Shown here: one piece after another, positions 1,684 to 64,000 of the stretch
Position numbering within the stretch: the first letter of the stretch is position 1
Layout: each line of letters begins with the position of its first letter
Assembly (NCBI GenBank): GCA_022780025.1
Contig: JALEXS010000018.1
Location: 3,837 to 67,836 of the forward strand
Source of the DNA: Mollicutes bacterium
GTDB taxonomy: Bacteria; Bacillota_I; Bacilli_A; RFN20; CAG-826
Direction of reading: 5' to 3'
Length of the DNA stretch: 64,000 bases
The notes under the pieces: generated by a model
Seen by the model: only the letters and a program-made list of their open reading frames with translations
What the model was told of the DNA's origin: nothing
The model's database searches: none
Translations under genes and position numbers: made by a program

Positions 1684-2558
1684 ACTTCTTCTTTATAAGG
1701 AATAGATATTACACTACCCTTTCTACTTACAGCAATAGAACTAGCTTTACTAGCTATATCCATACTTTCTTTAATAGAATATCCACTAGCTAATGAACTA
1801 GTAAAATATCCAATATAAGTATCTCCAGCAGCGACAGTATCAATAGCATTAACTTTATAACAACCTACTTTAATTTCTTTATCTTTAGATTTAAATAAAC
1901 TACCTTGAGTACCTAAAGTAACTAAAACATTTTTAATTCCTTTAGATAATAAATAATCGATAGATTCATTAATATCATCTAATTTAGTATACATTTTAAG
2001 TTCAATCTCATTAGGAATAAAATAATCAATATAACTAAATAATTCTTCTTTTATTTCTCGATAAGGAGCAGGATTATAAATAACTATTTTATTTCTAGCT
2101 TTCGCTTCTTTTATACAAAATTCATTAACTTCTTCGCTAATTTCATTTTGAATTATTAAATAATCCATCTCATCAAATAACTTTAAATCAATATCTTTAC
2201 TAGTTAATTGACCATTACTACCTTCAATAATAATGATCTTATTCTCACTATTTTTATCAATAACAATAGTTGCGTTACCAGTTTCAACATCTTCACACAC
2301 TTTAAGCATTGGTTTAACACCATATTTAATTAAAGTATCTTTAATAATATTTCCATCACTATCATTACCAATAGCACCAATCATTGTTACATCACACATT
2401 TTAGATTTAGCTAGAGCTACTGCTTGATTTTCACCTTTTCCTCCAGGTTGAATAAATCTATTTCTTCCAAAACAAGTTTCGCCATTAACAGGAAAATCAC
2501 CATTTAAATAAACAGTGTAATCCATATTTAAACTACCAACTACTAAACACTTTTTCAT
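1674..2558 (-). CDS. rbsK: Ribokinase (PfkB family)
   Basis: 294 aa. Motifs are PGGKGENQAVALAK (N-terminal GG motif), NPAP, and DTVAAGDTYIGYF (PfkB signature 2). Confidence 0.85.
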   Translation of the reverse strand: MKKCLVVGSLNMDYTVYLNGDFPVNGETCFGRNRFIQPGGKGENQAVALAKSKMCDVTMIGAIGNDSDGNIIKDTLIKYGVKPMLKVCEDVETGNATIVIDKNSENKIIIIEGSNGQLTSKDIDLKLFDEMDYLIIQNEISEEVNEFCIKEAKARNKIVIYNPAPYREIKEELFSYIDYFIPNEIELKMYTKLDDINESIDYLLSKGIKNVLVTLGTQGSLFKSKDKEIKVGCYKVNAIDTVAAGDTYIGYFTSSLASGYSIKESMDIASKASSIAVSRKGSVISIPYKEEVFK

Positions 2559-55623: not shown

Positions 55624-56511
55624 TTATTTAACACCAGTTAAACTGATGCCCTCCTTAATAAATCTTTGAACAATTATAAATACAACAATAGCTGGAATAA
55701 GTGATATAAATGAAGCAGCTAAAACAGCACCATATCCAACAGTATTAATATCTTGGAATAATGAATTAATTAAAGTCATTATTTGAGTATATTGAGAATG
55801 AGCCTTATCAATAGTTAAAGTAGGCCATAAATAAGAATTATAATAACCAATAAATGTACCTGCTCCCATAATAACCATTGGAGTTAATGAATTAGGAACA
55901 AATATTTTAAAGAATATTTCAATTGAATTACATCCATCAACTCGAGCAGCTTCATCATAATCTTTAGGAAATCCTAAATAGAATTGCTTAAAAAAGAATA
56001 TATTATAAGCATTAGCTAGACCAGGAACTATTAAAACCAAAATAGTATTAAGCATTCCTAAACTAGAAACAACACTAATTGAAGTTAATAAAATTGTAAT
56101 ACCTGGAATAAACATCGTTGATATAACTATTACCCATATAATTTTCTTAAAAGGAAAATTAAGTCTAGCAAAAGCATAACCTGCAATTGAATTAATGAAT
56201 AAAGATAAAACCATTGATATAGTTGCAACAAGTAAAGTCATTCCAAACGATTGGAAGAAATTAACACCAATTGTTGTATATTGTAAATAAAATAATCTAG
56301 CAAAATTATCAGTAGTCCATTGATGAGGAAATATATGAAAATCCAAACTAAATATTTCTTTTTTATCTTTAAACATTGATAAAATAGTAAAGAATAAAGG
56401 TAAAAAGATATTAATTAAAACTATGATTACTATTAAATAAAGTAATATTTCAATAACTCTACTTTTAGTAGTTTTAGTTTTTCTTTTATTTCTAGAATCT
56501 AACTTATCCAT
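55624..56511 (-). CDS. Carbohydrate ABC transporter permease
   Basis: EAA loop EAARVDGCNSIEIFFKIFVP. 6 TM. Confidence 0.85.
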   Translation of the reverse strand: MDKLDSRNKRKTKTTKSRVIEILLYLIVIIVLINIFLPLFFTILSMFKDKKEIFSLDFHIFPHQWTTDNFARLFYLQYTTIGVNFFQSFGMTLLVATISMVLSLFINSIAGYAFARLNFPFKKIIWVIVISTMFIPGITILLTSISVVSSLGMLNTILVLIVPGLANAYNIFFFKQFYLGFPKDYDEAARVDGCNSIEIFFKIFVPNSLTPMVIMGAGTFIGYYNSYLWPTLTIDKAHSQYTQIMTLINSLFQDINTVGYGAVLAASFISLIPAIVVFIIVQRFIKEGISLTGVK

Positions 56512-56513
56512 AA

Positions 56514-57449
56514 TTATTCACCCTTTTTCTTTCTATTTGATAAAGAAAAAACAATCGCATTAAGTGCTCCAATAAATATCATTATAACTATTGAAGAAGC
56601 TATTATTTCACTTTGAGAAACATTACCATTAGCTCTAGCATGAATTAAATATAATACAGGTGTCATTGTAGAATTTAATGGTTGACCATTTGTCATAAGC
56701 ATAGGTATCTCAAACATCTGTAAATTTGCAGTAACTAAAGTAACAATAATTAATACAAAATAATTCTTTAAACAAGGTAAAACTATATACCACATCTGCT
56801 TCCAAAAATTAGCACCATCTATTTCACTAGCTTCATAATAATCTTTAGGAATATTAATTAAACCTGAATAAAATATTAAGGTAGTATAACCAGATCCAAT
56901 CCAAATAGTAGGAACAATTATTGATATATAAGCCCAGAATTTAGAATAAGTAAACGCAATAGGTTCAATATCCATCCATCCTAAAATACCATTAATTACT
57001 CCACCATTATAATAAGTTAATAAAGTAAAAATACATCCTACTACAATCCCAGAAAATAAATAAGGTAAATAAATTATTGTTCTAGCAAATATACCAAATC
57101 TATTCTTAATTCTTACTAAAATATTAGCAAATAAGAAAGCACCTATTACTTGCAAAATTACAATAAATAGTGTCATTATGCAGACATTTAGTAAAGATTT
57201 AACGAAATTTTGATTTTTAAAAATCTTAATATAATTACTAAAACCAGCAAAAATAGCTTCATTAGGTCCAGATTCAAAATAGAAAAATGATCTATATATT
57301 GCCATTATTAAAGGAACAATTACGAAAATAGTTAATAAAATAACAGCTGGAGCAATAAGTAAATATCCAGATACTTTTTCTTCTTTAACAATATTTTTTG
57401 GTAATATTGAAAACTTCTTCATAAACCTATAAACGTGGATTCTTTCCAC
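56514..57449 (-). CDS. Carbohydrate ABC transporter permease
   Basis: EAA loop EASEIDGANFWKQMWYIVLP. The track start at 57449 is a GTG overlapping the SBP gene. The ATG at 57422 is an alternative start. Confidence 0.8.
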   Translation of the reverse strand: MERIHVYRFMKKFSILPKNIVKEEKVSGYLLIAPAVILLTIFVIVPLIMAIYRSFFYFESGPNEAIFAGFSNYIKIFKNQNFVKSLLNVCIMTLFIVILQVIGAFLFANILVRIKNRFGIFARTIIYLPYLFSGIVVGCIFTLLTYYNGGVINGILGWMDIEPIAFTYSKFWAYISIIVPTIWIGSGYTTLIFYSGLINIPKDYYEASEIDGANFWKQMWYIVLPCLKNYFVLIIVTLVTANLQMFEIPMLMTNGQPLNSTMTPVLYLIHARANGNVSQSEIIASSIVIMIFIGALNAIVFSLSNRKKKGE

Positions 57450-58791
57450 TTAAAGAATTATCATTAATAATCTTAGTGACAGCTTTATCACATTTATCAA
57501 TAGAACTATCAATATCTTTTCCCATTGCTGCTTCTTCTAATAACCCTTCAACAGCAACACTAATATTCCAATCATATATTGGTTCTAAAATAGCTTTATT
57601 AGATACACCACTAATAACATCAATCCAACTAGAAGGAACATCATTTTGTTCATTCTTTTTCTTATCTAATATAGTTTGTATTGACTTTCTAGGAGATGCT
57701 TTTGAGTAAAATGCTCTAGTAAAATAATCAACTGTTTGTTCTTCATTTTCCGCAGTTAAAAATTTAATAACTTCTATAGCTTTATCTACATTTTTACATT
57801 CACTAGATATAACATAAGCCCATCCACCATTAGTAGCAGTAACTTTATCTTGATTACCATCAAATGTTGGCATAATAGCAAATCCAATATCATCTTTAAT
57901 ATCTTTATATTGATTTAAAACAGTCGATATTGACCAACTACCACAAGTAGTCATAACTGCTTTTCCATCGCATACATCAAAAACAGATTCAGTATATTCG
58001 CCACTTGATAAAGGAACATATCCATTAGAATATAAATCTTTCCATAAATTAGCTAAATCTTTATAACCTTTTTCTTTAATTCTAGAAGTAGACCAATCTT
58101 CAGTGATAGCAAGTCCTCCTGTAGCACTATGTTGCATACCCCAAGTACCCCAAGCACAAGCAACCCCAGTTGGTACACCAAAAGGATAAATATTTTTCTT
58201 ATTATCTTTTCTTAAATTAGTTTTAATATTTTTACATAAATCTAAGAAATCACTCCATTTAGTAGGAACATTATCTTTATTACCATATTGCTTTAATAAT
58301 TTCTTATTATAAGCAACTATAGTTGATGGCTCCATAACAATAGGGAATCCATAATATTTATTATTATATGTAATAGCTTCTTTAGCAGTATCTTTTAAAT
58401 CATCCCAAACTTTATTATCTAAATAACTTGATAAATCAATAGCTCTACCTGCTTGAACTTCTTTATATAGATTACCATAAGATACCATATAAATATCAGG
58501 TACATTCTTAGCTTCATAACTTGATCTAATTAAATCATCAAAATCATTCTTATTAATATAAGTTTGATCAAGTTGAATACCATCATCTTTTATTTTATTG
58601 AATGCTTTTCTTTGAGAAATATTAATTTGATTTTCCCATTCCTCAAAATCCATCATCCACATCTTAATATGTGTTGCATTTTCTTCTACAAATTCTTTTT
58701 CATCATCAATTATTATATCTGATGGTGGTTTACATGAAAATAAACAAGAAATTGCACAAAAACTTAATAAGTATAGCTTTCTTCTTTTCAT
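57427..58791 (-). CDS. ABC transporter sugar-binding lipoprotein (family 1)
   Basis: Lipobox LFSC, 454 aa. It is the first gene downstream of the AraC regulator. Confidence 0.8.
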   Translation of the reverse strand: MKRRKLYLLSFCAISCLFSCKPPSDIIIDDEKEFVEENATHIKMWMMDFEEWENQINISQRKAFNKIKDDGIQLDQTYINKNDFDDLIRSSYEAKNVPDIYMVSYGNLYKEVQAGRAIDLSSYLDNKVWDDLKDTAKEAITYNNKYYGFPIVMEPSTIVAYNKKLLKQYGNKDNVPTKWSDFLDLCKNIKTNLRKDNKKNIYPFGVPTGVACAWGTWGMQHSATGGLAITEDWSTSRIKEKGYKDLANLWKDLYSNGYVPLSSGEYTESVFDVCDGKAVMTTCGSWSISTVLNQYKDIKDDIGFAIMPTFDGNQDKVTATNGGWAYVISSECKNVDKAIEVIKFLTAENEEQTVDYFTRAFYSKASPRKSIQTILDKKKNEQNDVPSSWIDVISGVSNKAILEPIYDWNISVAVEGLLEEAAMGKDIDSSIDKCDKAVTKIINDNSLSGKNPRL

Positions 58792-58895: not shown

Positions 58896-59765
58896 TTATT
58901 TTTTTGATTTATTTTTTTCGTTTTTATATTGTGTCGGATATCGTCCATCTAATTTATAAAACCAACGTGAAAAAGTTTGAGGTTCATTAAAATTAAGTAA
59001 CATTGATATTTCTTTAATAGATTTAAAAGAATTTCTAATCAAGTTTTTAGCATAACCTAATCTTAAATTATCATAATATTTTTTTGGAGTAGTATGAAAT
59101 GTCTTATTAAATAATTCATTTAATGCCCAACTAGATAAATTACTTTTGAGTTCAAAATCTTTAAGAGTTAAATTATTTTGTAAATTCTCAGTCATATAGC
59201 GAGTAATCATACTAACCATATCAAAATTTTCACTATCTTCTTTATAACCAATAGCATCGCTAATATACATTGATAATAATAATTTTAATGTTCCTTCCAT
59301 ATGTAATTTCTTTAAAGGATCATCAAAAGTATACTCATTTATTAAATGTAACATTAAACTTCTTACTAAAGATGGATTAGTTGAATGAATAACAAGTGGT
59401 AAATTTAACCCTAATTCCTTTAAATAATTAGGTCTAAAATAAGTTAATTCTTTATCACTCATATATTCTTTTTCTTTCATTGATACAGGAATAATAGGTG
59501 ATAATTCATCTTCATTAAAATCAAAATGAATATGAGGTTGACAACAATTCTCCTTATACCATCTAATAATATGATGTTTATTAGGAGGAATTAATATTAA
59601 ATCTCCTTCTTTTACTATATAAGTATCATCATCAAATTCTATCTTCATCATTCCTTTATCAATAAATATCAGTTCGAAATCAAAAATAGATCTATTAATA
59701 AAATAATCAGGAAGCCATGTATGATACATTGCAAGTCTTATATAAGGTTTAAAATTGAGTTCCAT
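58896..59765 (-). CDS. AraC family transcriptional regulator
   Basis: Cupin-like N-terminus (GDLILIPPNKHH). C-terminal AraC HTH IKEISMLLNFNEPQTFSRWF. Confidence 0.85.
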   Translation of the reverse strand: MELNFKPYIRLAMYHTWLPDYFINRSIFDFELIFIDKGMMKIEFDDDTYIVKEGDLILIPPNKHHIIRWYKENCCQPHIHFDFNEDELSPIIPVSMKEKEYMSDKELTYFRPNYLKELGLNLPLVIHSTNPSLVRSLMLHLINEYTFDDPLKKLHMEGTLKLLLSMYISDAIGYKEDSENFDMVSMITRYMTENLQNNLTLKDFELKSNLSSWALNELFNKTFHTTPKKYYDNLRLGYAKNLIRNSFKSIKEISMLLNFNEPQTFSRWFYKLDGRYPTQYKNEKNKSKK

Positions 59766-60015: not shown

Positions 60016-60033
60016 AGTACCCATTCGGGTACT
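60016..60033 (+). promoter_or_regulatory. GC-rich palindrome AGTACCC-N4-GGGTACT upstream of lipoprotein gene 1
   Basis: 7-bp arms with a 4-nt spacer, ending 21 nt upstream of a TAATAT -10-like box. The same element sits upstream of the paralogue at 62192-62209. Confidence 0.5.
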
Positions 60034-62079: not shown

Positions 62080-62116
62080 AAGTAATAACGCCTAAATAAT
62101 TATATATTCCTTCAAG

Positions 62117-62147
62117 AAAAATCTAAGGGTTAAACCTTAGATTTTTT
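62117..62147 (+). terminator. Rho-independent terminator
   Basis: 12-bp perfect stem AAAAATCTAAGG / CCTTAGATTTTT with loop GTTAAA, running into a T tract. It lies 38 nt after the stop codon. Confidence 0.7.
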
Positions 62148-62191
62148 ATTTATAGACAATTTTTTATTATTTATAATAAAAATTAAATATT

Positions 62192-62209
62192 AGTACCCTA
62201 CTGGGTACT
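62192..62209 (+). promoter_or_regulatory. Second copy of the AGTACCC-N4-GGGTACT palindrome
   Basis: Same arms as 60016-60033, followed by a conserved AAATATG(C/T)TAATATT..CACAAAGGAGAA leader. Confidence 0.5.
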
Positions 62210-62299
62210 AATAGATATTAATAAATATGCTAATATTAATCCACAAAGGAGAATAAAAATAAAAAAAGAAATAGTATTTTTGGTTTATTTTCTATTTTT

Positions 62300-64000
62300 A
62301 TGTTAGCTATTCCTATAACATTAGTAACTTCAAGTTGTAAGAAAAAGCATCAACATAATTATGAAGAAAATCGGACTATCACTGAAACGGAACATTATCA
62401 CAAATGTAGTGATACTAATTGTGATGATAAAAAAGATTTAGGGGAACATACCTATTCTAATTGGACTACTAAAACTGAAGCTGGAGTTGATACTAATAAA
62501 GTAGAAAAGAGAATTTGTACAGTATGTTCTAAAGAAGAAACTAGGATAATTGAAGATAGTGCTACTCATACTTGGGCTTATAAGTTTGATAATGAATCTC
62601 ATTGGGAAGAAACTACTTGTAATCATGATCCTCAATTAATTAGAAACGTCACTCCACATAGTTGGTATTACACTTCTAGCGGTGAAAATGGACATAAAAA
62701 ATATTCAACTTGCCCTACTTCTATTCATGAAGAAATAGTTATTGGACCTATTGCTCATACTTATGATGATGAATCTGATCCTACATGTAATGATTGTGGT
62801 TTTACAAGAACTATTACTAATTTAGGTTCATTTAAAGAAATTAGTGATAAAACATATAGTGGATATAATCAAGGTATTAAAGATTATGAATATGAAATTG
62901 ATGAAGCAATTCAATCTTATTCAGAAATTCAATATAAATCTATAGATGATCCTGAAGAATCTTATTCTACTACTGCTCCAATTGATGCTGGTACATATAA
63001 TGTAAGAATTTATTGTAATGGTAGCTTGACACATGGAAAAGGTGTAATTGCTACTTCTACTTATAAAATATTACCTTTTGAAGTAGATGTTAGTACTTAT
63101 TATGAAATCAAATATGATGAAGCAACATATAACGATTCTAATATTAATTTCTTACATTTAGAAACTATAGATATGTATGATGATGATTTCTATGGTAAGA
63201 CATTTAATTTAATAGCTAATGATCCTAAATATAAAGCTATAGGTAGATATGATATACCTAGAAGTGATTTATATTTAGATACTAATGGAGAAGATAATAA
63301 TTTTACAATATCTAATAGTATTACTAGTATTAAGGTATTAAATTATGATGATAGTGAACCTCAATTATTAATTCATAATGGTGCTAAGCAAACTGCTTAT
63401 ATGTATAGAGATATCTTAACTATTTATCATGTAGATTTAACAAGTGGAACTATAAGAGTTGGTGATTATTTATATTGTGATACTCTTGATGCACCTTTAT
63501 TAATTACTAGACTTTATAAAAATATGGATGTTCAAGCAATAACTAAAGGTGAAACTAAGTTTTCAGTTCAATTTAAGAATACTGTAGTAACAGAAGATAA
63601 TTTTGTTGGCAAATTAGAAATGAAAACTTTAAGAAAGGTCAGTTATGAAGTAGTAAAATATGCTGGTAATCCTTCTTTTGATTCTAAACCATTCACTTGT
63701 GAAGTAGGTGTAATTAGATTTATGGAAGTAAGTATTGAGTTAGAAGCTAATACTAAATATCGTTTCCAAGTTCAAACTATAGGAAGTTATGCCTATAGTC
63801 ATGTTGGAACTGATACACCAATTAAAGTGTATAACGTTACTGGTAAAACTTTATTAACAATGGATTCAGAGATTCACAATAAATTTTATATAGAAAATAA
63901 TACTAATGAAAAAGTAACTGTTACATTAGTTGTTGGTGCTACTAAAGTAGGTACAGATCCTAAACCAGCAGTTCATAACTTCGTATTATATGTTATTAAC
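62300..64000 (+). CDS. Paralogous Cys/His-repeat lipoprotein (partial, runs off the right edge; 5' end anomalous)
   Basis: The frame is open from 62240 to the window end and is absent from the ORF track. The translation ...KKRNSIFGLFSIFMLAIPITLVTSSCKKKHQH... parallels gene 1. The first in-frame ATG is at 62300. The position equivalent to the gene-1 ATG is not a start codon. Confidence 0.6.
   Translation, partial: MLAIPITLVTSSCKKKHQHNYEENRTITETEHYHKCSDTNCDDKKDLGEHTYSNWTTKTEAGVDTNKVEKRICTVCSKEETRIIEDSATHTWAYKFDNESHWEETTCNHDPQLIRNVTPHSWYYTSSGENGHKKYSTCPTSIHEEIVIGPIAHTYDDESDPTCNDCGFTRTITNLGSFKEISDKTYSGYNQGIKDYEYEIDEAIQSYSEIQYKSIDDPEESYSTTAPIDAGTYNVRIYCNGSLTHGKGVIATSTYKILPFEVDVSTYYEIKYDEATYNDSNINFLHLETIDMYDDDFYGKTFNLIANDPKYKAIGRYDIPRSDLYLDTNGEDNNFTISNSITSIKVLNYDDSEPQLLIHNGAKQTAYMYRDILTIYHVDLTSGTIRVGDYLYCDTLDAPLLITRLYKNMDVQAITKGETKFSVQFKNTVVTEDNFVGKLEMKTLRKVSYEVVKYAGNPSFDSKPFTCEVGVIRFMEVSIELEANTKYRFQVQTIGSYAYSHVGTDTPIKVYNVTGKTLLTMDSEIHNKFYIENNTNEKVTVTLVVGATKVGTDPKPAVHNFVLYVIN

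Follow-up and report, generated by a model that had tools for sequence, protein, structure and literature searches.

The window, i.e. the whole stretch of 64,000 nucleotides that was analysed, carries two paralogous lipoprotein genes, gene 1 and, downstream of it, gene 2. The leader and start region of gene 2 contain the following features.

62116..62147, + strand: intrinsic terminator of gene 1, a 13-bp stem followed by a U-run (RNA fold)
62193..62208, unstranded: palindrome GTACCC-N4-GGGTAC, preceding the Shine-Dalgarno sequence by about 40 nt
62245..62253, + strand: Shine-Dalgarno sequence AAAGGAGAA, with GGAG at 62248-62251, the same as that of gene 1
62258..62338, + strand: ancestral signal peptide frame (N)KKRNSIFGLFSIFMLAIPITLVTSS-C, with the lipobox Cys codon at 62336-62338
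62259..62260, + strand: remnant AT of the ancestral ATG, the following G deleted (comparison with L013, X10 and X6, see below)
62261..62267, + strand: A7 tract, corresponding to ancestral codons 2-4 (AAA AAA A-GA = K K R)
62259..62306, + strand: out-of-frame 15-codon ORF starting from ATA, IKKEIVFLVYFLFLC and stop (translation)
62300..62302, + strand: first canonical in-frame start codon, ATG, implied by the database protein P0020

The collinearity of the two leaders, pointed out in the initial annotation, was confirmed: in both genes the palindrome, CACAAAGGAGAA and the start region follow in that order. The terminator of gene 1 (dG -15.7 kcal/mol, z -4.19, none of 200 shuffles equally good) was not listed by the consensus terminator scan, because its stem has fewer than three GC pairs; its position implies that gene 2 is a separate transcription unit. 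The palindrome occurs in exactly two copies in the 1.43 Mb genome, the second one being upstream of gene 1 (60017-60032), and at the syntenic orthologous locus L013 its arms are kept in front of both genes and its spacer differs. It can fold into a hairpin (dG -15.8, z -4.49), and may serve as an operator or as a 5' hairpin. The GGAG motif is separated by 7 nt from the remnant AT(A) at 62259 in gene 2, and by 9 nt from the ATG in gene 1.

Downstream of the signal peptide the product of gene 2 can be divided into four parts.

62339..62830, + strand: Cys/His-rich repeats of the H..W..tE.HWH.C type (profile match; boundaries approximate)
62831..63346, + strand: middle beta-rich region with a conserved YNG...AGTY (MBG/Ig-like) motif (all-beta in the model)
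63347..63640, + strand: EF-Tu domain II-like beta-barrel (structure model and alignment to D2 of gene 1)
63641..64000, + strand: C-terminal beta-sandwich of 120 residues (model pLDDT 91.1)

The order of parts is thus lipobox signal peptide, Cys/His repeats, Ig/MBG-like region, domain II-like barrel and beta-sandwich. The initial annotation implied that the gene was cut by the end of the window; this proved not to be so, since the stop codon TAA was found at 64001-64003, right after the last position of the window. Counted from the ancestral start position gene 2 has 581 codons, and its 3' end is complete.

Genes 1 and 2 share 29% identity over 501 residues and resemble each other in the collinear leader, the signal peptide, the Cys/His repeats, the Ig-like region and the domain II-like barrel. 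The profile of the gene 2 family matches residues 906-979 and 1066-1115 of PDB 9qa6_A (E 6.5e-7), the Thomasclavelia ramosa IgA protease (IgAse), where the matched regions correspond to the stalk domains ZBD1 and ZBD2. In the description of that structure consulted here they carry putative His/Cys zinc sites and may space the protein from the cell surface (PMC12237041). In contrast to IgAse, whose zinc-binding repeats are C-terminal, ahead of the sortase signal, gene 2 is without a peptidase domain and its repeats are N-terminal, behind the lipobox. The Pfam MBG family was matched by three of the 21 members of the gene 2 family (best E 2.5e-4); the window protein itself had no match to it, and no informative Pfam match was obtained with this protein.

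The barrel proposed initially for the 3' part of the gene is supported by the structure model. Model residues 350-447 superimpose on domain II of EF-Tu, SelB and eEF1A with Z 10.6-11.8 and rmsd 1.8-2.4 Å over 81-90 aligned residues (residues 206-295 in EF-Tu), and the same stretch is aligned to D2 of gene 1, a domain confirmed by Pfam. At the sequence level, Pfam PF03144 (EF-Tu domain 2) gave nothing at E<=0.1 in gene 2, nor at E<=1 in the 21 family members, and the PDB profile search with the gene 2 family reached SelB weakly (E 0.76). Gene 1 contains EF-Tu domains II and III (PF03144 and PF03143), whereas in gene 2 domain III was not detectable and another beta-sandwich follows the barrel. 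The best structural matches of this sandwich are sandwiches of binding modules, namely HA70 domain 3 (Z 9.1) and collagen-binding/PPC and similar domains (Z 7-8). Domain III, initially not seen in the part of the gene inside the window, was not found in the complete gene either, which ends 3 nt past the window: there was no match to PF03143, no EF-Tu chain among the best 50 structural matches, and in BLASTP the similarity between the gene 2 C-terminus and D3 of gene 1 was not significant (E 0.05 over 30 residues), nor was any similarity of the C-terminal domain to the tail of gene 1. Among the literature matches listed, titles and the opening parts of abstracts held nothing relevant on lipoproteins with EF-Tu domains from gut Bacilli.

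The start region in the window and in intact orthologues

The lipoprotein frame of gene 2 is open from 62240, an in-frame stop standing just before it (62237-62239). From 62240 the codons are TCC ACA AAG GAG AAT AAA AAT AAA AAA AGA AAT AGT, followed by ATT TTT GGT TTA TTT TCT ATT TTT and then the ATG at 62300. Re-reading of the codons bore out the initial observation that no canonical start precedes this ATG: ATG, GTG and TTG are all absent from the frame between 62240 and 62300. The ATA at 62259-62261 lies in the +1 phase, one base off the lipoprotein frame. The A7 tract was also found as described, at 62261-62267, and a single added A would indeed bring the ATA in frame (ATA AAA AAA AGA, with a non-canonical start), i.e. 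the 5' coding region of gene 2 does possess a homopolymer whose length sets the frame of the ATA. In the ATA frame the A7 forms a perfect A_AAA_AAA -1 slippery heptamer, and the TAG of the 15-codon ORF (62304-62306) overlaps the region of the ATG at 62300, the stop lying 2 nt past that ATG. This short ORF is a by-product of the G deletion discussed below, and any function of it would be conjectural. Possible escape routes at this site are the ATA at a proper Shine-Dalgarno distance, the slippery A7 and re-initiation at the ATG at 62300. The ATT at 62276 was considered as a start codon and rejected, being 24 nt from GGAG and giving no n-region with K or R.

Comparison with orthologues points to the origin of this arrangement. 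At L013 the start region reads GGAGAAACAAAAATG+A7+GAAAT, i.e. ...AAAAATG AAAAAAA GAAAT, and the X10 contig, which stems from another study, has ...GAGAATAAAAATG and continues gap-free with the window sequence from 62261. Among the orthologues, 20 sequences reach the N-terminus, and 15 of them begin with MKK(R/I)NSIFGLF. The orthologues carry ATG AAA AAA AGA exactly at the site of the lesion, in line with the decay reading of the initial annotation, and the window allele is short of the G alone. The alignments show that gene 2 lacks its start codon because one nucleotide, the G of the ancestral ATG, is deleted. An expression element present in intact orthologues, as is typical of pseudogenes, has been lost. 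The ATG-less allele is real: between 62100 and 62993 (894 nt) the window is matched without differences or gaps by another contig, X4, assembled in a different study. Its 567-aa product is found in database records from three contigs and several sources. The nearest intact allele, P0025, differs from the window allele at three of 567 residues, so the loss of the start is recent. Apart from the start, the ORF of the window allele is fully intact, with no second lesion. Gene 2 was functional in its past, its dN/dS relative to L013 being 0.55 overall and 0.21, 0.38, 0.87 and 0.73 in its successive quarters.

The ancestral signal peptide of gene 2 aligns residue for residue with that of gene 1 and with the MKKRNSIFGLFSIFMLAIPITLVTSSC of the orthologues, and the ancestral frame has the n-region, the h-region and the lipobox Cys of a lipoprotein precursor (KKRNS-IFGLFSIFMLAIPITLV-TSS-C). 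Translation from the ATG at 62300 would start with MLAIPITLVTSSC, and the positively charged n-region would be missing. As suspected initially, such a short signal peptide is an outlier. Among the 100 lipobox-type N-termini of the genome it is the shortest (Cys at position 13, most others at 16-29) and the sole credible one free of K and R, at least one K or R being present in 94 of the 100. There is no Shine-Dalgarno sequence upstream of this ATG. Taking into account both the missing ribosome-binding site and the outlier signal peptide, the ATG at 62300 is not an evolved start. When lipoprotein-like stop-to-stop frames were collected from the genome, four of the 107 had no canonical start ahead of the K/R residues: two evident false positives, the doubtful C16 and gene 2. 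The missing start of gene 2 is exceptional within its genome.

Lesions of gene 2 in other strains and the state of the window allele

On the allele tree the state without canonical start requires two origins. The second start-less clade comprises P0032, P0033, P0039 and P0037; DNA evidence exists for a single member of this clade, X6, in which the start position is occupied by ATT, with a T inserted behind 62259. The open frame of 566 codons is kept in three of the four sequences of the clade. Further breaks of gene 2 were found on a contig of 24039 nt (420 aa + 127 aa) and on a contig of 26087 nt (115 aa + 276 aa). Gene 1 is full length on the same contigs that carry a broken gene 2. In addition, the ATG-bearing X10 shows a possible change of the Shine-Dalgarno sequence (GGAG>AGAG). 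Gene 2 has been broken independently in other strains.

Gene 2 alleles are mosaic and strain-variable. Amino acid identity to L013 is 76% for gene 2 (P0028) vs 88% for gene 1, and 19 database matches were found for gene 2 vs 104 for gene 1. Against 40 relatives (species-representative genomes) gene 2 gave weak partial matches, the best with 39% identity over 122 residues, and its orthologues were found solely as strain-level proteins and in L013, which was reached via gene 1. A search of the JGI metagenome contigs with gene 2 yielded no DNA of an orthologue, its single match being a distant locus of marine origin (L012, 32% identity over 51 residues). The metatranscriptome run X15 had no coverage over 62100-64000, and is uninformative either way.

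These observations make it probable that the window allele of gene 2, a strain-variable surface lipoprotein gene, has recently become a null or strongly hypomorphic allele, i.e. a nascent pseudogene. The normal state in the species is ATG AAA AAA AGA AAT (MKKRN...), 7-9 nt past the GGAG of the Shine-Dalgarno sequence. The G of the ATG has been lost, either by a single-base deletion or by a G>A mutation with later shortening of A8 to A7. What the ribosome-binding site now faces is an out-of-frame ATA, and no start codon that would yield a normal signal peptide is left to the lipoprotein frame. The protein is presumably absent or present at trace level in the window strain, and the lesion is one of several that have independently inactivated or weakened gene 2 in pig-gut strains. 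Loss of the gene 2 product may be tolerated or favoured because it would be a surface antigen or adhesin that is exposed and dispensable. The allele is present in at least two studies, so it can have no strongly deleterious effect and might even be favoured. Since the gene 2 ORF is, start aside, fully intact, some residual function is conceivable. Start-loss and frameshift polymorphisms of dispensable surface proteins present the same picture, with one recent lesion and the rest of the ORF intact.

Of the readings offered in the initial annotation, decay, in the form of recent start loss, thus gives the best fit, phase variation through the A tract was not upheld, and non-canonical initiation is conceivable.

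Possible residual expression, possible tuning of initiation, and tract length

A leaky allele with low lipoprotein output is a possible but distinctly less likely explanation. Two routes can be envisaged: (a) initiation at the ATA at 62259 and then a -1 slip of the ribosome, or else slippage of RNA polymerase to A8, either of which would restore MKKRNS..., or (b) initiation or re-initiation at the ATG at 62300 after the TAG at 62304-62306, with a minimal signal peptide. Consistent with such leakiness, the Shine-Dalgarno sequence, the palindrome in the promoter region and the entire ORF are intact, the ATA sits 7 nt past GGAG, and the sequence directly shows how the slippery heptamer is placed and how stop and start overlap. 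Moreover, infC of the same genome appears, from its sequence, to start at an ATA 8 nt past AGGAGG, and the open frame retained in the ATT sister clade (566 codons in three of four sequences) fits as well. Non-AUG initiation and unstimulated slippage on A7 are each inefficient. Selection against A/T runs is reported to become apparent, as a rule, only at a length of about 9 nt (PMC1088944). The combined yield should thus be very small. There was no stimulatory structure in the 5' region of gene 2, the fold of which is no better than that of shuffles (z -0.41), and route (b) would depend on the ATG that has no Shine-Dalgarno sequence and gives the outlier signal peptide. The intact ORF is no evidence of selection, because the start lesion is too recent.

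Like nascent pseudogenes in general, gene 2 has intact and broken alleles coexisting in the species, with other strains independently broken. Unlike in ordinary nascent pseudogenes, its lesions cluster on initiation (deletion of the G, ATT, and possibly the Shine-Dalgarno change in X10), a pattern that may be a sign of tuning and not of simple decay. A more speculative proposal, which we regard as rather unlikely, is that the repeated lesions of initiation represent a population-level silencing or dialling down of an exposed antigen or receptor under host IgA or phage pressure; this would operate via weak, IF3-discriminated initiators (ATA, ATT) and not via repeat-length switching, and the A_AAA_AAA behind the ATA would give a trickle of product.

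Even less probable is reversible phase variation, with A7 as OFF and A8, with ATA as initiator, as ON, the two states being interconverted by slipped-strand mispairing. The precedent is the Vaa system of Mycoplasma hominis, for which A8 is reported as ON and A7 or A9 as OFF (PMC524362). With Vaa, as described there, gene 2 shares that it encodes a surface lipoprotein/adhesin, that a short poly-A tract just past the start sets the frame by its length, and that the gene is mosaic and strain-variable. In that description the tract of Vaa varies behind a normal ATG, whereas in gene 2 the tract is constant and the start codon is damaged. The host differs too: the organism carrying gene 2 is not a code-4 mollicute, and the mollicute label attached to it initially does not fit the coding, since the genome reads well with table 11, TGA being a stop (ORFs of at least 150 aa then cover 87% of the genome).

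That the homopolymer occupies codons 2-4 of a gene for a surface lipoprotein, and that one more A restores the frame from ATA, is compatible with switching. The strain comparison proposed in the initial annotation as a check on tract heterogeneity gave A7 in all five DNA alleles (the window, X4, X10, X6 and L013; for X6 as judged among the indels listed), and A8 in none of the five. These are contig-level alleles throughout, a level at which a minority of A8 molecules would stay invisible. The allelic difference sits in the base preceding the A tract and not in tract length. Slippage to A8 would give a weak ATA start, while intact alleles use ATG+A7; the natural ON state is therefore out of reach by slippage. 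The ATG-less copies belong to one haplotype (one protein, three contigs, X4 being identical over 894 nt), which speaks for a single event and not for recurrent switching. Runs of A or T of length 7, 8 and 9 occur 1201, 54 and 1 times in the genome, i.e. runs of at least 8 are rare and strongly avoided. Of 99 lipoprotein-like ORFs, 19 have at least seven consecutive A no farther than 33 nt from the start. In this AT-rich genome ATG+A7 is common because of ordinary MKK coding, hence a homopolymer beside a missing start is not in itself evidence of phase variation. With A7 constant across the alleles and ATG-A7 common in the genome, the proposal of tract-length phase variation is unsupported.

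A sequencing or assembly artefact hiding a genuine ATG is very improbable, for although the assembly is fragmented (82 contigs) and indel errors do occur beside homopolymers, the missing base is a G and not a member of the homopolymer, the independently assembled X4 is identical across the site, and the truncated product stands in records from three contigs and several sources.

Meaning of the lesion for gene 2 and its family

Recent start loss being the preferred reading, the case of gene 2 is an ordinary event, the recent loss of a start codon in a variable surface protein of one strain. It has a practical consequence for annotation: the database protein starting with MLAIPI (567 aa) reflects a fallback to the next ATG, and its start should not be mistaken for the native N-terminus. 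In this uncultured gut Bacilli lineage gene 2 is a fast-evolving, mosaic and often broken surface lipoprotein gene next to a conserved paralogue, gene 1. Variable and often broken beside a conserved gene 1, gene 2 is probably subject to pressure by the host or by phages. With its zinc-binding-type repeats and a barrel apparently taken over from translation factors, which would be displayed on the cell surface, the protein family may merit a study of its own.

The start of gene 2

The frame of gene 2, the copy without a canonical start in a pair of neighbouring paralogous lipoprotein genes, is open from a stop at 62237-39 and translates as S T K E N K N K K R N S I F G L F S I F M L A I P I T L V T S S C. 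ATG, GTG and TTG are all absent from it upstream of 62300, and an ATA at 62259-61 is off the frame by one base. The initial annotation had described this region in the same terms (collinear leader, no start before 62300, A7 tract, ATA), and the description was correct on re-reading. Its proposal to extend the 3' end was carried out on the contig, where the stop codon immediately follows window position 64000, so that the gene is complete, with 581 codons from the ancestral start position.

Features of the gene 1-gene 2 region
55624-58791 (-) and 58896-59765 (-), ORF region upstream of gene 1 (from translations)
60017-60032 (gene 1) and 62193-62208 (gene 2), palindrome GTACCC-N4-GGGTAC, found nowhere else in the 1.43-Mb genome
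60085-62079, gene 1, 664 aa
62116-62147, strong intrinsic terminator of gene 1 (dG -15.7 kcal/mol, z -4.2)
62261-62267, A7 tract (from the sequence)
62339-62830 and the equivalent part of gene 1, Cys/His repeats H..W..tE.HWH.C...C..C (from a profile)

Gene 2 is preceded by its own leader, collinear with that of gene 1; the two share the palindrome, an AT-rich stretch and CACAAAGGAGAA. The palindrome lies upstream of the Shine-Dalgarno sequence in both, at a distance of ~40 nt in gene 2 and ~35 nt in gene 1. Its arms are conserved and its 4-nt spacer varies (ATTC, TACT, ATAT), also in L013, a syntenic orthologue locus of another assembly (L013 5611-5626), and it may be a paralogue-specific operator or a 5' hairpin. 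The two proteins are 29% identical over 501 residues, in an alignment that takes in residues upstream of Met 62300. Divergently from gene 1 runs a 289-aa ORF, adjoined by a lipoprotein-like 454-aa ORF and two membrane-protein ORFs, which, judged by their translations, look like a regulator and a sugar ABC transporter.

A protein search with gene 2 returned four orthologue clusters (81-94% identity) comprising 24 sequences, 20 of which include the N-terminus. Fifteen of these 20 begin with MKK(R/I)NSIFGLFSIFMLAIPITLVTSSC and five with MLAIPI, at the internal ATG; the canonical start of the majority thus falls exactly where the window has AAT (62258-60). L013, in which gene 1 is 88% identical and gene 2 lies directly downstream, has an intact start, reading GGAGAAACAAAAATG AAAAAAA GAAATAGT. 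A different study, with sequencing run X10, supplied a contig that agrees gap-free with the window from 62261 on and has ...GAGAATAAAAATG ahead of it. These two intact starts show that the window differs by the absent G of the ATG. X10 also reads AAAAGAG where the window has AAAGGAG, which, at a contig end with a depth of 5.8, is weak evidence. The ancestral ATG AAA AAA AGA AAT became AT AAA AAA AGA AAT; mutation of the G to A with subsequent shortening of A8 to A7 would lead to an identical sequence, and the two paths are indistinguishable. The window (62261-62360) and L013 (5681-5779) do not differ in the first ~100 nt of gene 2 behind the start, yet dS in the first quarter of the gene is 0.31; local constraint or recent recombination could account for this identity.

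The nearest intact allele, P0025, differs from the window product at 3 of 567 residues. The lesion is recent, and the intact downstream ORF is thus uninformative on present function. Among the three readings offered by the initial annotation, decay by recent start loss is the best. The recent loss of a single base, the start-codon G, has probably made the window copy of this strain-variable surface lipoprotein gene a null or strongly hypomorphic allele.

Alleles of gene 2 across strains

On a maximum-likelihood tree of 19 near-full-length gene 2 alleles, the state without a canonical start needs two origins, one in the window allele and one in a clade of four orthologues (P0039, P0032, P0033 and P0037; support 100/97). 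P0037 is encoded on a 24039-nt contig; record 11 of run X6, also 24039 nt long, has a T put in behind 62259, giving ATT AAA AAA AGA. Three members of this clade keep an open 566-codon frame; in the fourth the gene is broken once more (420 aa + 127 aa). A 26087-nt contig carries gene 2 in two pieces, of 115 aa and 276 aa. Both this contig and the 24039-nt contig have a full-length gene 1, as do 15 of 17 orthologue sequences listed (the gene 1 orthologue cluster has 31 members, 15 of them listed).

The gene 2 alleles are mosaic: which quarters of the gene hold most of the differences from the window changes from allele to allele. In comparison with L013, gene 1 has a dN/dS of 0.46 and gene 2 one of 0.55, the latter by quarters 0.21, 0.38, 0.87 and 0.73. 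By these ratios the N-terminal half is constrained, and the distal half (barrel and C-terminal sandwich) evolves almost freely or under diversifying pressure. Taken together, the strain-level breaks, the mosaic alleles and the dN/dS values point to a dispensable, exposed, fast-evolving and often lost surface protein. The comparison of strains suggested by the initial annotation thus yielded independent breaks and intact alleles with ATG, but no difference in tract length among five contig-level alleles.

Residual translation and tract length

Leaky non-canonical initiation could in principle leave a meaningful residual expression, which we regard as unlikely. The ATA at 62259 lies 7 nt behind GGAG, and in its frame the A7 tract forms a perfect A_AAA_AAA heptamer, so that exactly MKKRNS... 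would result if the ribosome slipped by -1 or the RNA carried one extra A. The infC gene of the same genome (contig C48, locus L017 ~2050-2075, minus strand) also appears to start at an ATA, 8 nt behind AGGAGG; its sole upstream in-frame ATG lies inside a stretch judged by eye to be GC-rich and hairpin-like, followed by a T-run. Unslipped, the ATA frame of gene 2 ends after 15 codons at TAG 62304-06, 2 nt past ATG 62300. Reading of the sequence revealed no purine-rich Shine-Dalgarno ahead of that ATG, and the product from it, MLAIPITLVTSSC, has its Cys at position 13 and no K/R. Of 100 lipobox-type N-termini in the source genome, 94 carry one or more K/R in the n-region (93 carry at least two), and the Cys is mostly found at position 16-29; with its start at ATG 62300, gene 2 is the only credible exception. 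ATA initiation, the -1 slip or extra A, and the ATG 62300 route are possible but, on general grounds, would each be inefficient. The gene 2 5' region shows no significant structure (z -0.41). Near a contig end (C16:91-270, +), a second lipoprotein-like frame (..ARFLFIPLSLLTLSSCGFV..) may lack a canonical start upstream of its signal peptide.

On-off switching by tract length, raised by the initial annotation as a device of mollicute lipoproteins, is very improbable. The source genome (26% G+C, 82 contigs, 1.43 Mb) is not that of a code-4 mollicute, since under table 11, with TGA as stop, ORFs of at least 150 aa cover 87% of it; the runs matching the window stretch are mostly labelled pig gut metagenome. 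In the closest known system, the 5' poly-A tract of M. hominis Vaa is ON at A8 and OFF at A7 or A9 (PMC524362); there tract length varies, whereas gene 2 has a constant A7 and the preceding base varies. A7 was found in all five DNA alleles seen at the contig level (window, X4, X10, X6 and L013; X6 from an indel table with two rows not shown). Every copy of the ATG-less allele seen is of one haplotype, indicating a single event and not repeated switching. A runs of at least 7 occur within 33 nt of the start in 19 of 99 lipoprotein-like ORFs and in 73 of 1192 ORFs overall, and 'ATG then A7' is simply the way this genome writes MKK plus an A-starting codon. A/T runs in the whole genome number 1201 (length 7), 54 (length 8) and 1 (length 9). 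This drop suggests strong avoidance of runs of at least 8, that is, longer slippage-prone runs are avoided, not exploited, in agreement with the selection against A/T runs reported as evident from about 9 nt in many genomes (PMC1088944).

A sequencing or assembly error is the least credible explanation and very unlikely, because over 62100-62993 the window is matched with 0 differences and 0 gaps by a contig from a further study (run X4), and 3 contigs are on record with the 567-aa product.

Domains of the two paralogues

Pfam identified EF-Tu domains II and III in gene 1. Over this part, 28% of the gene length, identity to genuine EF-Tu proteins is ~37-41%, and orthologues of gene 1 are many (70-93% identity, clusters of up to 448 members); the family is one of widespread surface-displayed EF-Tu-domain lipoproteins. 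Pfam found nothing in gene 2, and neither domain in 21 members of its family. The AlphaFold model of the 567-aa product (mean pLDDT 84.5) is all-beta. Domain II of EF-Tu, SelB and eEF1A can be overlaid on its residues 350-447 (window 63347-63640), with 81-90 residues aligned at Z 10.6-11.8 and rmsd 1.8-2.4 A. The predicted structure thus bears out the domain II-like barrel proposed by the initial annotation.

The last 120 residues, folded alone, form a beta-sandwich (pLDDT 91.1). Its best structural match is HA70 domain 3 (Z 9.1), followed by collagen-binding/PPC, claudin-binding and PliG-type domains (Z 7-8); these best matches are binding modules, but Z values of such size are common for sandwiches and show only the fold class. 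No EF-Tu chain was among the top 50 structural matches, and BLASTP detected no significant similarity to domain III or the C-terminal tail of gene 1. In line with the initial annotation, no domain III was thus found in the complete gene 2 by Pfam, by BLASTP or among these top 50 matches.

Profile comparison matches the Cys/His repeats at the N-terminus to two regions of PDB 9qa6_A (E 6.5e-7), an 'IgA protease' according to its depositors. The account of this Thomasclavelia ramosa enzyme speaks of putative His/Cys zinc-binding domains, possibly serving as a stalk (PMC12237041), and the repeats of both paralogues are related to these domains as described there.

The case of gene 2 is ordinary in kind; what makes it modestly interesting is that translation initiation has been hit repeatedly and that the protein family is unannotated.
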